Translations under genes and position numbers: made by a program
Notes under the pieces: generated by a model
Databases searched by the model: none
Told to the model about the DNA's origin: nothing
Seen by the model: only the letters and a program-made list of their open reading frames with translations
In this document: in pieces, positions 1 through 63,900 of the stretch
Layout: the number at the start of each line of letters is the position of its first letter
Numbering within the stretch: the first letter of the stretch is position 1
NCBI GenBank assembly: GCA_964016885.1
Contig: OZ024752.1
Span: 17,360,001 to 17,424,000 of the forward strand
DNA: 64,000 bases
Direction: 5' to 3'
From: Eledone cirrhosa
Lineage: Eukaryota

Positions 1-815
1 GTTTAGTTGACTGTATATCTGGACGATTTCTACATGCTGTCGAAATGTTCGATAAATACTCCATCGTAGCGACCGCGTAGGGGCTGCTTTCGGTTATTTG
101 CCGGCGATTTCTTCATGGGAGCCTTTATTCTCATAGCTTGGTCTAATTGATTTTTTATATGGTTAATTATGCTGATTGGGAGAGGAAATGGTATATATTA
201 TATCTAGTGATTCTAAAGACATGTTTTATGATATATAGCTCTGATTATTTAATTTATTAATTCTTCATTGAGCCACAACGTGACCTGTTGCAAAACACAT
301 ATATATCTATGACTTTATATATATGTAAACCTTTATATGTAATAATCTCCCGTTAGGTTGAGATACAATTTGGCTATATTGGGCTGCGCTTTCAGCAATA
401 AGCCTACCCGCCATAAGCAACTAATCACATCCTTTTTAGCTTGACCGCTGCCACGTCACGATTCTTAGCCATTTTTGACTGTATTTTTGGCGCGATCACT
501 TTGGAAAATTAAATGTCTAATTTTGAGTTCACTCCTGATGAATCCGAAGCTCTAGACAGTCCCTGTTATCGGATGTCTTAAAATACGGATGAAACCATGG
601 TAGAGGCAATTAGGTATGTACGCATTTCTTCTAAGTTTGATTTTACACCTAATTATGTTTAGTTGACTGTATATCTGGACGATTTCTGCATGCTGTCGAA
701 ATGTTCGATAAATACTCCATCGTAGCCACCGCGAAGGGGCTGCTTTCGGTTATTTGTCGGAGATTTCTTCATAGGAGCCTTTATTCTTATAGCTTGGTGT
801 AATTGATTTTTTTAT
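1..815 (+). repeat. End of a 656-bp tandem array of a non-coding hammerhead-bearing element (family A; retrozyme/PLE pLTR-like)
   Basis: gtttagttgactgtatatctgg at 1 recurs at 657. The same unit forms the array at 59271-60925. Confidence 0.85.
532..605 (+). ncRNA. Type I hammerhead ribozyme, family A
   Basis: ctc-CTGATGA-atccg...cggat-GAAA-ccatgg-TA-gag. Stem III is palindromic (ACCATGGT) and stem II is extended. Confidence 0.8.
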
Positions 816-817
816 AT

Positions 818-58794: not shown

Positions 58795-60925
58795 ATATAT
58801 CATAAAACATGTCTTTAGAATCACTAGATATAATATATACCATTTCCTCTCCTAATCACCATAATTAACCATATAAGAAATCAATTAGACCAAGCTATAA
58901 GAATAAAGGCTCCTATGAAGAAATCTCCGACAAATAACCGAAAGCAGCCCCTTCGCGGTGGCTGCGATGGAGTATTTATCGAACATTTCGACAACATGTA
59001 GAAATCGACCAGATGTACAGTCAACTAAACATAATTAGGTGTAAAATCAAACTTAGAAGAAATGCGTACATACCTCTACCATGGTTTCATCCGTATTTTA
59101 AGACATCCGATAACAGGGAATGTCTAGAGCTTCGGATTCATCAGGAGTGAACTCAAAATTAGACATTTAATTTTCCAAAGTGATCGCGCCAAAAATACAT
59201 TCAAAAATGGCTAAGAATCGTGACGTGGCAGCGGTCAAGCTAGAAAGGATGTGATTAGTTGCTTACAACGTTTTTGAATGTATTTTTGGCGCGATCACTT
59301 TGGAAAATTAAATGTCTAATTTTGAGTTCACTCCTGATGAATCCGAAGCTCTAGACAGTCCCTGTTATCGGATGTCTTAAAATACGGATGAAACCATGGT
59401 AGAGGTAATTAGGTATGTACGCATTTCTTCTAAGTTTGATTTTACACCTAATTATGTTTAGTTGACTGTATATCTGGACGATTTCTACATGCTGTCGAAA
59501 TGTTCGATAAATACTCCATCGTAGCCACCGCGAAGGGGCTGCTTTCGGTTATTTGTCGGAGATTTCTTCATAGGAGCCTTTATTCTTATAGCTTGGTCTA
59601 ATTGATTTTTTATATGGTTAATTATGTTGATTGGGAGAGGAAATGGTATATATTATATCTAGTGATTCTAAAGACATGTTTTATGATATATAGCTCTGAT
59701 TATTTAATTTATTAATTCTTCATTGAGCCACAACGTGACCTGTTGCAAAACACATATATATCTATGACTTTATATATATGTAAACCTTTATATGTAATAA
59801 TCTCCCGTTTGGTTGAGATACAATTTGGCTATATTGGGCTGCGCTTTCAGCAATAAGCCTACCCGCCGTAAGCAACTAATCACATCCTTTCTAGCTTGAC
59901 CGCTGCCACGTCACGATTCTTAGGCATTTTTGAATGTATTTTTGGCACGATCACTTTGGAAAATTAAATGTCTAATTTTGAGTTCACTCCTGATGAATCC
60001 GAAGCTCTAGACAGTCCCTGTTATCGGATGTCTTAAAATACGGATGAAACCATGGTAGAGGTAATTAGGTATGTACGCATTTCTTCTAAGTTTGATTTTA
60101 CACCTAATTATGTTTAGTTGACTGTATATCTGGACGATTTCTACATGCTGTCGAAATGTTCGATAAATACTCCATCGTAGCCACCGCGTAGGGGCTGCTT
60201 TCGGTTATTTGCCGGCGATTTCTTCATAGGAGCCTTTATTCTCATAGCTTGGTCTAATTGATTTTTTATATGGTTAATTATGCTGATTGGGAGAGGAAAT
60301 GGTATATATTATATCTAGTGATTCTAAAGACATGTTTTATGATATATAGCTCTGATTATTTAATTTATTAATTCTTCATTGAGCCACAACGTGACCTGTT
60401 GCAAAACACATATATATCTATGACTTTATATATATGTAAACCTTTATATGTAATAATCTCCCGTTAGGTTGAGATACAATTTGGCTATATTGGGCTGCGC
60501 TTTCAGCAATAAGCCTACCCGCCATAAGCAACTAATCACATCCTTTTTAGCTTGACCGCTGCCACGTCACGATTCTTAGCCATTTTTGACTGTATTTTTG
60601 GCGCGATCACTTTGGAAAATTAAATGTCTAATTTTGAGTTCACTCCTGATGAATCCGAAGCTCTAGACATTCCCTGTTATCGGATGTCTTAAAATACGGA
60701 TGAAACCATGGTAGAGGTAATTAGGTATGTACGCATTTCTTCTAAGTTTGATTTTACACCTAATTATGTTTAGTTGACTGTATATCTGGACGATTTCTGC
60801 ATGCTGTCGAAATGTTCGATAAATACTCCATCGTAGCCACCGCGAAGGGGCTGCTTTCGGTTATTTGTCGGAGATTTCTTCATAGGAGCCTTTATTCTTA
60901 TAGCTTGGTGTAATTGATTTTTTTA
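58795..60925. mobile_element. Family A array: ~470-bp inverted arm plus ~2.5 tandem 656-bp units; hammerheads at 59074-59147 (-), 59331-59404, 59987-60060 and 60643-60716 (+)
   Basis: Exact 656-bp spacing of the ctcCTGATGA cores. The inverted arm abuts (TA)n. Confidence 0.9.
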
Positions 60926-63900
60926 TATGACAAAGAGCTCAGGATTTCTTCTCCTTTGAGCACATTATTTACAGGGAATAGCGAGAGCCTATGCCTCCGT
61001 TAATTTATCGTGATATTTCGCTCCTAATAACAGTCTTTCCTACCTCAGTTTGGTTGAGCACACTTCTCTGAGTGGCTTTGGGCTGCCCTTTCTAGCAGTT
61101 CGTCCCCCAGAGGCCACTGGTTCACTGCCCTTAAACACGCTGTGACTTCTCCCTCCCATGTGTAGCTGGACAGTCAATTTTAAAATTCTCTTAGTGTTGT
61201 CTGAAATGTATAGCCTTACACACGGTGATGAACCGAGGCTAACCCATTGCTTTCAACAAATTATTGGTGAAACATATCTTTGGATTAGTGTCTTTGGATT
61301 TGTACGTGTGTTATATAGTTATAGAGGTATTTATTTACGCTTTAATTTATATTTTTAATTATCATGTCTATAGTCTGCCTTTCATAAATTATAGATTCCA
61401 TACACTGGTGGTTTTTTTCCCCTGTTTTATTGATAACGCACTATATATCTCTCTCTGGTGTGTTACCTTTTCAACATATTGTATTTTAAAGAGCTCAAGA
61501 TTTCTTCTCCTTTGAGCACATTATTTACAGGGAATAGCGAGGGCCTATGCCTCCGTTAATTTATCGTGTTATCGTGATATATATATATATATATATATAT
61601 ATATATATATATATATATATATATATATATATATATGGGGGGTGGGGGTGCGCGCGTGTGTGTGAGTATGTATTTGTGAATGTGTCTGTTGACATCTGGA
61701 ATATGGCTTAAGAGAAACTTGAAGATAATGGTATGATAGGCACTCAATATTTTGAACTGGTCTATAGAATTCTCTAGGCCTTTATCACTCTAAGAAGAAT
61801 TAGCTTTTAAAGAATTTCCCTTTTCTTTAAATCCATCAACCATGACTGACCACCAACGATCTTATAGACACCTGAAATATAGGCATTGTTAGCTTAAGAG
61901 AAACTTAAAAATAAGGAGTGGCACCCATTCTGAACTTGTTTATAGAATTCTTTCTGCCTTTGTTACTCTAAATATAAATTATAGCTTTAAAGAATTAGCT
62001 TTTATTGAATTCTCTTTTCTATCAACCAATGACCTCTACCCATCGCACTCCCCACCTTCCCCTACCACCTGAAGAGATCTATAAATACCATATTTATTTT
62101 TTGATACCCAGATTCCTGATGATTTCTAAAGAATGAAACAGTTCTAGTCCTGTAGAATCTCATCTATATTAAAACTTTTATGCTCTGCTATGTATTGAGT
62201 ACCTTAATTACTGTGGTTACCTCCGATTCAACCCGGAATAACGTATATATATATAACTTTCATATATATATATATATATATATATATATATATATATATA
62301 TATATATATATATATATATATATATATATATATATATATATATATATATATATATATATATTCAGGTTTGAGGTTCACCACTGTATAGAGCTGGTCTATT
62401 CCGTATGGTCAATCGTAATGCAATAATATAGAGAGTACTCAACGTAAAGCAGTTCAACCGTCTTTGTTTTTGTAGTTGGTGGTGCTATTACGGAGTTAAA
62501 TATTATAATGAAATGACAGGAGGCTGGATTTGTGTAAATCCTTGAAAGGTTTATTATACTATGATCATTTCAATGACCGGGTTCCGTATGAATCCGGTGA
62601 TATCATCAGGTATTCGAAATATAATACGTGAATGTAATAGATAAAATCCATGGGGATTTTAACTTCATCCTAGAAGTCTAAACACTATAACACACTGACT
62701 CCCAATATATTCACCTCTGCTAAGATGCGGGTCCCTGTGAACATTTTCTCGCGCCACTCCTGGCTTGACTGTGGCCTGACATTAATATCGACCTTTCTTC
62801 CTCTTTCTTTCTATCTTCCTTCTTGTAGCCATCAACCCTTACTTTTCTACTTCTCTCTTCCCTCCCTTCTCTTCTCCCCTCCTCCTGTCTTCCTCCCGCA
62901 GACTTATCTTCCTTCCCCCTCTTGCTTGCCTATATCTGACCAGTAGTAGTTGCCTTTCTTCTTTTAGCTGACATTAACCCTGACTTCTCTTCTTCTTTCT
63001 TCCCCCTTCTTCTCTCTCCTTCCTTTCTTTCTTTTACCTTGTGTCATGAGATCGACGTTAACTTATGCTACCATCCCTTTCTGTTTTCGTTTATCTGACC
63101 GGTAGTAGCATACTATAAACTTTAGTCACGTCACTCCAGGGCGACCGGCTGAGGTTGAAGGAACAGAATAGCGGTTGCCCTCGGGTCCTCGATTTTCAGC
63201 CCCATGGATTTTATCTATTACATTCACGTATTATATTTCGAATACCTGATGATATCACCGGATTCATACGGAACCCGGTCATTGAAATGATCATAGTATA
63301 ATAAACCTTTCAAGGATTTACACAAATCCAGCCTCCTGTCATTTCATTATAATATTATATTATATATATAAATATATATATATATATATATATATATATA
63401 TATATATATATATATATATATATATATATATATATATATATATATATATATATATATATACATATATAAAACATGAGAAGAAAGAATACTGCGTGGTTGC
63501 ACATGGGTTACATATGATAAAAATAGTCCTTCGTCAGTGATTTTCCAACCTTCATTGGTATTTCATCGCTTTAAAAATCATATACCTTCGGTTGGTGCGA
63601 ACAATAGCTAAATAAAGCTATTGGGACAAGTAAATCGCGTAAAGCGAGCGAGACAGTAAACAACAGGGAAGGATAGCAACGCAAAGATAGGAAAAAACAA
63701 GCAGCATGGGAATCCGGTCAGCTTAAGCTGGGTGGATTTCATGAGCGAGAGGGAAATACAGACCATCCGACGTGAGTGAGATGTGAGCAAGAAGAGAACC
63801 CACTACAGGCCAAACGGGAGGAAGTGAAAAGGGGAGAAACAGAGAGTGAGTGAGTGGAAGTGCGAGGAAGAGGCCAGTCGAGAGAAAGTGTAACTGACAG

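Follow-up and report, generated by a model that had tools for sequence, protein, structure and literature searches.

Hammerhead repeats in an octopod genome: Penelope-like element ends, non-coding units likely pasted into (TA)n, and a family with a predicted S-G-C-order hammerhead

A 64,000-nt stretch of the genome of the octopod Eledone cirrhosa (contig OZ024752.1, positions 17,360,001–17,424,000; hereafter the window) is crowded with hammerhead ribozyme motifs, and this raises the question of which elements brought them there. An initial annotation, made from the letters alone, proposed at least 11 unrelated families of non-coding, ribozyme-processed retroelements, mobilized by proteins of Penelope-like elements (PLEs) and targeted to TA microsatellites. 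We conclude, with a probability of roughly 0.75, that the population is mixed: 3' ends of PLEs occur together with non-coding units of 0.3–2.9 kb, likely all pasted into (TA)n by PLE proteins, and one non-coding family, N, carries a predicted knotted hammerhead with its strands in S-G-C order. This reading is supported by the excess of type I cores over shuffled sequence (16 versus 0.11–0.18), the TA flanks, the linkage of some families to open reading frames (ORFs), the anatomy of the insertions and the covariation within family N.

The hammerhead cores of the window are real. A type I descriptor requiring at least 3 bp in stem I and at least 3 bp in stem II, loosened after two stricter versions had given 3 and 11 matches, finds 16 cores. 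Three sets of 100 dinucleotide shuffles gave means of 0.11, 0.13 and 0.18 (maximum 2) and the reversed sequence gave none, so shuffled sequence does not match the motif counts. Fourteen of the 16 had been annotated; the others are an unlisted core at 6826 on the minus strand (6826−) and a duplicate at 62116. All 20 sites annotated as intact hold CTGAnGA, GAAA and TH (A15.1–U16.1, H17) in type I order, and 14 of them satisfy the descriptor for helices I, II and III. At 2421−, 3058, 23160, 46972−, 49332 and 58525 the core is kept, but stem II is only 2 bp long or stem I contains a mismatch, the one in stem I at 23160 being private to that copy. Two copies described as mutated are indeed so: 1114 has C3 changed to G, other copies of its family being intact, and 4143− lacks G12. 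(Annotated plus-strand coordinates fall 3–6 nt before C3, and minus-strand ones mark the 3' end.) Many of the cores have a stem III that is 1–2 bp long or palindromic; to judge from their sequences, the type I cores would self-cleave. A run of (TA)≥6 follows within 350 nt of the cut site in 11 of the 16, compared with 22% of random positions; the five cores lacking one are four family A tandem units and one inverted family I segment.

The annotated sites are fewer in kind than in number. Positions 1–3828 recur at 60112–63926 with 99–99.8% identity, and the locus is one of eight near-identical tandem copies of ~60 kb on its contig. Because the window is a unit of this duplication, every site beyond 60,112 is a non-independent repeat; the duplicates had been recognized only after 61 kb. 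All-against-all comparison joins three more sites to other listed families: 7723− is 72–83% identical to the 656-nt family A, 24442− is an 82% relative of 42886, and 4143− is a distant relative of 1114. The list thus reduces to 11 clans, and the proposed number stands once these three have been merged. Four clans are ends of autonomous PLEs (E, G, H and J), four are closed non-coding units (A, B/M, I and K), and the rest are D, C and L. Absent from the list were the type I core at 6826− (family F) and the S-G-C-order cores at 3439− and 24614− (family N).

The association with TA runs extends to the whole 3.0-Gb genome. In a random sample of 40 segments of 10 kb, placed at round coordinates fixed beforehand, we found 32 type I cores (0.8 in 20 shuffles), or one per 12.5 kb. 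We estimate from this about 240,000 type I cores in the genome (bootstrap 127,000–382,000), compared with 126,247 in axolotl (PMC7229834; 10.64898/2026.07.22.740005). A (TA)≥6 run lies no more than 200 nt downstream of 29 of the 32, as against 15% of random positions, which bears out the proposed TA targeting. With 14 cores per 60 kb the window has ~3 times the genome mean (bootstrap P = 0.017), an excess that tandem and inverted copies partly explain. Across all retrieved genomic DNA, which is enriched for TA islands, 316 distinct well-scoring cores form 28 clusters, 18 of them with at least three members. Exact-motif counts in the genome are 462 for A/A2, 12,847 for I and 1,608 for K, with 0 for the controls. 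Loci L380–L419 and others hold further type I families that are absent from the window, some of them frequent in the random sample.

Five families belong to autonomous PLEs. Family loci were taken as the top matches per query (14–24 non-duplicates per family, 19 extended to 10 kb); outside the extended loci the flanks are mostly 1.5 kb, and the ORF of family G lies 2.5 kb away. Reverse transcriptase (RT) plus GIY-YIG endonuclease at the C-terminus is encoded directly upstream in E, F, G, H and J, most of the ORFs being broken or truncated. Family E has a same-strand GIY-YIG ~1 kb upstream in 3/22 loci, RT plus GIY-YIG ends ~0.4 kb upstream of the family H query in 2/24, an RT-plus-endonuclease ORF ends 2.5 kb upstream of family G in two of eight extended loci, and a J-like ORF precedes family F in 9/22; family J is coding within the window itself (47253–48566, minus strand). 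Because their genomic relatives directly follow RT/GIY-YIG ORFs, the window copies of E, G and H are 5'-truncated ends of autonomous elements. The initial statement that all families except one, there called H, lack coding capacity is therefore wrong for those it placed at 6280, 21729/22875 and 23155.

The ORF of family G combines a CxCX5C linker (CNCRRASGC), SDKT and RWR with insertion at TA, in agreement with the Hydra clade as defined in PMC8557442 (CxCX5C linker, DKT, RWK-like motif, TA insertion); families H and J and the remnant at 26290..27497 have CX4CxxC linkers, and all clade labels here are assigned by motif. Like the Hydra/Neptune-type PLEs of PMC8557442 and PMC11167929, these families show a C-terminal GIY-YIG, a 3'-end hammerhead, partial tandems, an inverted 5'-truncated copy, (TA)n targeting and two alternative 3' ends. 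They differ in the length of the 3' untranslated regions (UTRs) of G and E, ~2.5 and ~1 kb, where Hydra elements are generally <3 kb overall (PMC8557442), and in alternative 3' ends that lie ~50–140 nt apart, compared with a 30–40-bp tail. A link between family C and the remnant at 26290..27497 was considered and rejected: TA runs separate the two, and the remnant element has its own end. In the remnant and its flank (25150–27497, minus strand), neither a type I nor an S-G-C core precedes the TA at which the 3' UTR ends; the element may use another ribozyme or none. At locus L150 (~30–1230), the middle of a Neptune-type RT directly adjoins an equally oriented relative of family L, with no TA in between; this could be the autonomous partner of family L or a template jump.

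The ORF linkage invites the view that every family is a fragment of the pseudo-long terminal repeats (pseudo-LTRs) or 3' UTRs of autonomous PLEs, that the short tandems stem from template jumping, and that none has a life cycle of its own. The initial annotation had itself named this alternative, and for E, F, G, H and J it holds. C and L also leave room for it, closure into a repeating unit not having been seen at the loci examined, as does family D, which closes on itself at 2.9 kb in only one of five extended loci; here the mostly 1.5-kb flanks matter. Families A, B, I, K, M and N do not fit. Each is preceded, at many independent loci, by the end of its own unit at a fixed period (A 656, B 556, I 543, K ~322, M ~500–540 and N ~522 nt). 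The longest ATG-initiated ORF per circularized unit spans 33–68 amino acids (152 in the CT-rich N unit), and a PLE protein match is never common to several loci; I, K and B have one upstream match each, which is confined to a single locus. At least two consecutive head-to-tail units occur in 12/12 insertions of A, 5/20 of B, 5/15 of I, 3/22 of K and 8/22 of N, and in 6/22 loci the arrays of family I are longer than the 3.4-kb locus. As an account of all families, fragmentation is improbable. Of the proposed non-coding population, families A, B/M, I and K thus survive as closed units; so, probably, does family D, which has no ORF longer than 133 amino acids on its strand. E, G, H and J leave this population as autonomous ends. 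Folding z-scores of the circularized units are −7.1 for I and −1.2 to −2.7 for the others (15 shuffles each). Long, satellite-like arrays of the 543-nt unit of family I, with TA absent between units, are found at loci L047, L048 and L058–L060.

These closed units resemble the non-LTR retrozymes of animals. As described in PMC7229834, the latter consist of tandemly repeated non-coding units that carry type I hammerheads; circular transcripts of them occur in coral, mussel and axolotl, and the coral has 16 hammerhead families. A preprint derives them from PLE pseudo-LTRs and gives 57 families with units of 51–972 bp for Xenopus (10.64898/2026.07.22.740005). Since non-LTR retrozymes have already been published as Penelope derivatives, the main idea of the initial annotation describes a known kind of system. 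Features shared with those two accounts are one type I hammerhead per non-coding head-to-tail unit, low GC, a range from monomers to long arrays, many families per genome and co-occurrence with PLEs; a further likeness, to the axolotl retrozymes, is a stem III that is weak or palindromic together with a mismatched pair at the foot of stem II. The Eledone units differ in that they mostly form dispersed insertions of 1–3 units, which show 5' inversions of the PLE type, end at fixed internal 3' positions and are flanked by (TA)n at either side. Family N departs further in carrying a ribozyme motif that is not type I; lacking a type I hammerhead inside its units, it is called retrozyme-like and not a member. 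The text of PMC7229834 does not contain the words cephalopod, octopus, microsatellite or inverted, and a literature search with most subscription papers outside its coverage found no cephalopod retrozyme study.

Evidence on the mode of movement comes from 91 dispersed insertions of families A, B, I, K and N (12, 20, 15, 22 and 22), a survey that excluded six family I arrays overrunning their loci and three loci that were duplicated or unmapped; it placed the family B cut site 30 nt too early, which leaves the conclusions the same. Within each family, the 3' ends fall together at one or two positions. An inverted 5' segment is present in 45/91, TA flanks both ends in 52/91, and 33/91 span at least two cut sites. 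Target-site duplications are unreadable because the ends lie in (TA)n. Together with the random sample, the survey bears out the expected combination of many families and Penelope-type insertion anatomy. Such copies cannot come from a cleaved linear monomer primed at those 3' ends. An uncleaved multimer or a circle, two forms not distinguishable here, is therefore the likely template. An anole PLE studied in vitro uses two internal initiation sites, AT-rich cutting and unprocessed RNA (PMC11167929).

We propose that the PLE endonuclease would nick (TA)n and that reverse transcription would begin at one of two fixed internal sites, 40–400 nt downstream of the ribozyme. Read-through of the cut site on an uncleaved multimer or circle would then give 1–3 head-to-tail units, and as each insertion would leave TA on both sides, later insertions could pile up as islands. 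Cleavage of multimeric transcripts by the ribozymes would release RNAs of unit length, which would then circularize, as in the retrozymes of coral, mussel and axolotl. By inference, the non-coding families are mobilized in trans by PLE RT/endonuclease proteins.

The ribozymes might instead be passengers, with unprocessed read-through transcripts moving and cleavage or circularization weak or irrelevant. For the anole PLE, PMC11167929 reports that insertion in vitro is unaffected by hammerhead mutants and that no reads end at the cut site; among our 91 insertions, a biased sample, no 5' end lies within 5 nt of a predicted cut; and the short or palindromic stem III of many cores points the same way. 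What speaks against passengers is that the cores persist as the stems vary through compensating pair changes, both between I and I2 and within the N clan, a pattern across subfamilies that argues for selection on the fold. We regard passengers as unlikely, though a serious contender.

Family N is where the motifs depart from type I. Its unit lacks a type I core, and its three junction strands run in the order site, GAAA, CUGA (blocks S, G and C), which is a non-circular arrangement. Every other closed unit carries a hammerhead; the N unit holds none besides this motif. A profile search of the retrieved genomic DNA gave 121 matches and 28 representatives at <95% identity. Six with a foreign 5' half, one N2 window duplicate and two close N variants were dropped, and the remaining 19 were aligned with two window copies (21 rows; pairwise identity at lowest 51%, median 74%). 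In the best structure, stem III leads through a 3-nt bulge with G·A and A·G pairs into a 6-bp outer helix, stem I pairs with the loop of this hairpin, and a 5-bp helix between the 5' leader and the strand before GAAA is stacked on the single 10.1–11.1 pair. Across the predicted structure 94% of cells are paired and 14/23 pairs are compensatory: stem I is 98% paired (4/6 compensatory), stem III 95–98% (2/5), block G with the 5' leader 88%, and the outer helix of the kink-turn (k-turn) 96% (5/6). Core positions are 98% conserved versus 78% in stems; GAAA, U4, G5, G8 and A9 are invariant in 21/21 rows, and N7, N17 and 10.1 vary. H17 is A in 33, C in 4 and T in 2 of 39 contexts and G in none, the lone aligned G belonging to a row with a 3-nt insertion there. 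We predict that family N forms a knotted hammerhead in S-G-C strand order: the k-turn would bend stem III back, its outer helix would join the far ends of stems I and II, and the 5' leader would complete stem II.

The k-turn consensus is closely followed in the 21 rows, with G at 1b in 21, A at 1n in 19, A at 2b in 20, and G, U or A at 2n in 13, 6 and 2; the window motif at 3415..3508 has A at 2n. Both U and A at 2n are described natural exceptions (PMC2790904, PMC3985660), and the Kt-7 consensus and Kt-23 variants share with N the 3-nt bulge, the G·A plus A·G pairs and two covarying helices; the folding of the N k-turn, and any binding of protein to it, are predictions. In a diverged S-G-C subfamily (L180:1985-2089, L108:1113-1217, L159:1992-2096, L313:1926-2030 and L467:313-416), 2n is U, one leader pair is swapped and block C is followed by a hairpin rich in G; variants of this subfamily recur among the genome-wide matches. 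For N as a whole, a local hairpin after block C, drawn by eye, was discarded as inconsistent between subfamilies; pairing in classical stem II and the published interaction helix is poorly supported.

A 34-place N pattern matches the genome 17,723 times and the reversed control 0 times, and this number is a floor because the pattern caught only 13/21 aligned rows; the window has three matches and 100 shuffles none. A loose S-G-C descriptor yields chance matches (5 in the random 400 kb, 0–4 in shuffles), which is why the claim is built on covariation within the family. All 22 N insertions end 105–109 nt past the predicted cut; 17 have TA at both ends and 8 span two sites. No PLE ORF adjoins the S-G-C copies in 35 contexts, several of them segmental duplicates and many reaching <1.5 kb upstream, and the sole PLE match upstream, at the window N2 copy, is separated from it by TA.

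Could the N motif be a box C/D-like, protein-binding k-turn element whose CUGA and AUGA boxes only mimic a hammerhead core? The k-turn strands do resemble D'/C' boxes in several rows, stem II is atypical, and a weak match to the C/D snoRNA snR66 overlaps 3439–3483 (26.6 bits, E 6.3, gathering score 65). The would-be guide strand, however, covaries with an internal partner, namely in stem I; the invariant positions and the variation at N7 and N17 are those a hammerhead requires and allows; and without a ribozyme the N unit would be the only closed unit here lacking one. We therefore favour the hammerhead and consider a box C/D element improbable.

Several observations weigh against the overall reading. 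Rfam hammerhead models match nothing in the window: none reaches the gathering score and none is among 124 matches up to E = 10 in this sequence-library test. In family N, no shuffle out of 500 reaches the pairing or covariation score and slid controls are 30–45% paired, yet both controls look better than they are, since the rows are relatives of one another and also the source of the structure. Classical stem II between blocks G and C has a first pair in 76% and further pairs in 48%, the published interaction helix is 59% paired, in competition with the outer helix of the k-turn, stem II pairing is missing from the five rows that diverge most, and pseudoknot-free folds show the k-turn hairpin alone (z −1.9 to +0.3). 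The 400-kb random sample holds no N-clan copy where ~2 were expected, and 5' inversion occurs in 0/22 N-subfamily insertions. No autonomous partner was found for any non-coding family, and the non-coding families share with five PLE 3' UTRs only one 39-nt match (E 8e-4). The top-match loci over-represent long, young copies. Finally, in Xenopus only one of nine predicted retrozymes cleaved in vitro (10.64898/2026.07.22.740005).

The nearest published relative of the N motif is the type-SGC hammerhead HRIMA-1 (Eckert et al. 2023, PMC10085705), reported from environmental RNA, so far the only source of this strand order, and from no genome of a known organism. Both have the S-G-C block order, the complete set of core nucleotides, stems I and III, and a short connection between the 3' strand of stem I and the stem II strand. 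In HRIMA-1, blocks G and C are joined by a stem II of ~5 bp, and there is an interaction helix and no k-turn arm; N has one classical stem II pair continued by the 5' leader, extends stem III through the k-turn and lies in a high-copy animal repeat. As the ~5-bp stem II is not present, we describe N as an S-G-C-order variant and not as a member of the published motif. The main text and supplement of PMC10085705 mention neither octopus nor k-turn, and the supplement does not mention metazoa. Our literature search, with most subscription papers outside its coverage, found no animal S-G-C hammerhead and no natural hammerhead with a k-turn in a retrotransposon. The long S-G-C pattern matches nothing in metagenomes or viral contigs; four metagenome matches of a short pattern were dismissed as chance, since all lie inside ORFs and lack block S pairing. 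In its strongest form, the proposal is that E. cirrhosa holds >17,000 copies of an active, unreported, non-circularly permuted hammerhead with a new four-strand k-turn-arm architecture, in circular-RNA retroelements mobilized by Penelope; we lean only slightly towards it. Possibly, an L7Ae-family host protein switches the N hammerhead on.

With the type I population, the range of non-LTR retrozymes now includes an octopod, and PLE-type anatomy on non-coding units (TA targets, two internal 3' ends, 5' inversions) supports the proposed Penelope helper directly from the genome. The S-G-C motif escapes Rfam and the type I–III descriptors. If N cleaves, the knotted hammerhead would be a high-copy part of an animal genome and not confined to environmental RNA, and other 'ribozyme-less' Penelope families may hide permuted ribozymes; core-only motifs are described for some Naiads by Craig et al. 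N would then mark the first time that a known organism's genome is found to contain a ribozyme of S-G-C order, here amid about a quarter of a million hammerheads. A natural k-turn in a hammerhead would mean a protein-controlled self-cleaving RNA, with thousands of variants for structural work and engineering.

Table 1. Hammerhead repeats and PLE remnants in the window (a minus sign after a core position denotes the minus strand).
Feature	Position	Strand	Remarks
Family A, end of tandem insertion from preceding 60-kb unit	1..818	+	C3 of type I core, 535
Family B, 556-nt non-coding unit, 85-nt terminal redundancy, ends in (TA)n	821..1465	+	core 1114
Family C, 5' side enters GT/TA microsatellite	1510..2115	+	type I core 1988
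Family D, piece of ~2.9-kb non-coding unit	2174..3168	both	inverted 5' segment core 2421−, direct core 3058+
Family N, piece of ~522-nt non-coding unit, 3' end in (TA)n	3371..3828	−	absent from initial annotation
N S-G-C-order hammerhead-like motif	3415..3508	−	predicted H17 3483, G12 3466, C3 3439
Family M, old relative of B, ~500–540-nt unit	3945..4490	−	core 4143, without G12
GIY-YIG remnant	5348..5740	+	38–45% identical to G and E upstream endonucleases; below Pfam cut-off
Family E, autonomous PLE 3' end, Hydra-like endonuclease	6248..6400	−	core 6340
Family F, 3' end of J-related autonomous PLE	6536..6900	−	core 6826, not in initial annotation
Subfamily A2, 72–83% identical to A	7360..7965	−	core 7723
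Family G, end of ~2.5-kb 3' UTR of autonomous Hydra-clade PLE	21684..23050	both	inverted core 21770−, direct core 22879+
Family H, autonomous PLE 3' end, Neptune-type linker	23115..23345	+	core 23160
Subfamily I2, short inverted segment, inserted at TA end of N2	24259..24579	both	core 24442−
Subfamily N2, 76–83% identical to N	24585..25128	−	intact S-G-C motif, predicted H17 24658, G12 24641, C3 24614
Broken PLE remnant	26290..27497	−	C-terminal portion of RT, CX4CxxC linker, GIY-YIG
Family I, ~543-nt non-coding unit	41836..43150	both	inverted core 41975−, partial unit, direct core 42886+
Family J, 5'-truncated PLE and inverted copy, TA at both ends	46675..49578	both	cores 46972−, 49332+
Family K, ~310–323-nt non-coding unit, terminal redundancy	55021..55380	+	core 55247
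Family L, older, copies 81–91% identical	58350..58747	+	core 58525
Family A, inverted segment and 2.5 head-to-tail 656-nt units	58794..60929	both	inverted core 59144−; cores 59334, 59990, 60646
Beginning of following ~60.1-kb segmental repeat, with second copies of A, B, C, D and N	60112..64000	both	cores 60646, 61225, 62116, 62609−, 63246, 63537−

The window also contains an ORF of glycosyltransferase family 11 (GT11; alpha-1,2-fucosyltransferase-like) at 16392–17807 on the minus strand, with a 54-bp coding repeat. Its nearest named matches are in Octopus sinensis (65%), O. bimaculoides (64%) and Argonauta (63%), with other molluscs below 50%. It lies inside the ~60-kb unit present in eight near-identical tandem copies at ~17.0–17.5 Mb of the same contig; from these units, and with the ORF read in one of them, the GT11 gene has probably been amplified recently. 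A 28-bp minisatellite is repeated 71 times at 55698–57664, and a second 28-bp array occupies 18286–18675. Remnants of non-PLE long interspersed nuclear elements (RVT_1 or zf-RVT) lie at 9712–13085, 28566–31211, 32491–36109, 37585–38955 and 43455–46626, the last of which retains long open frames.

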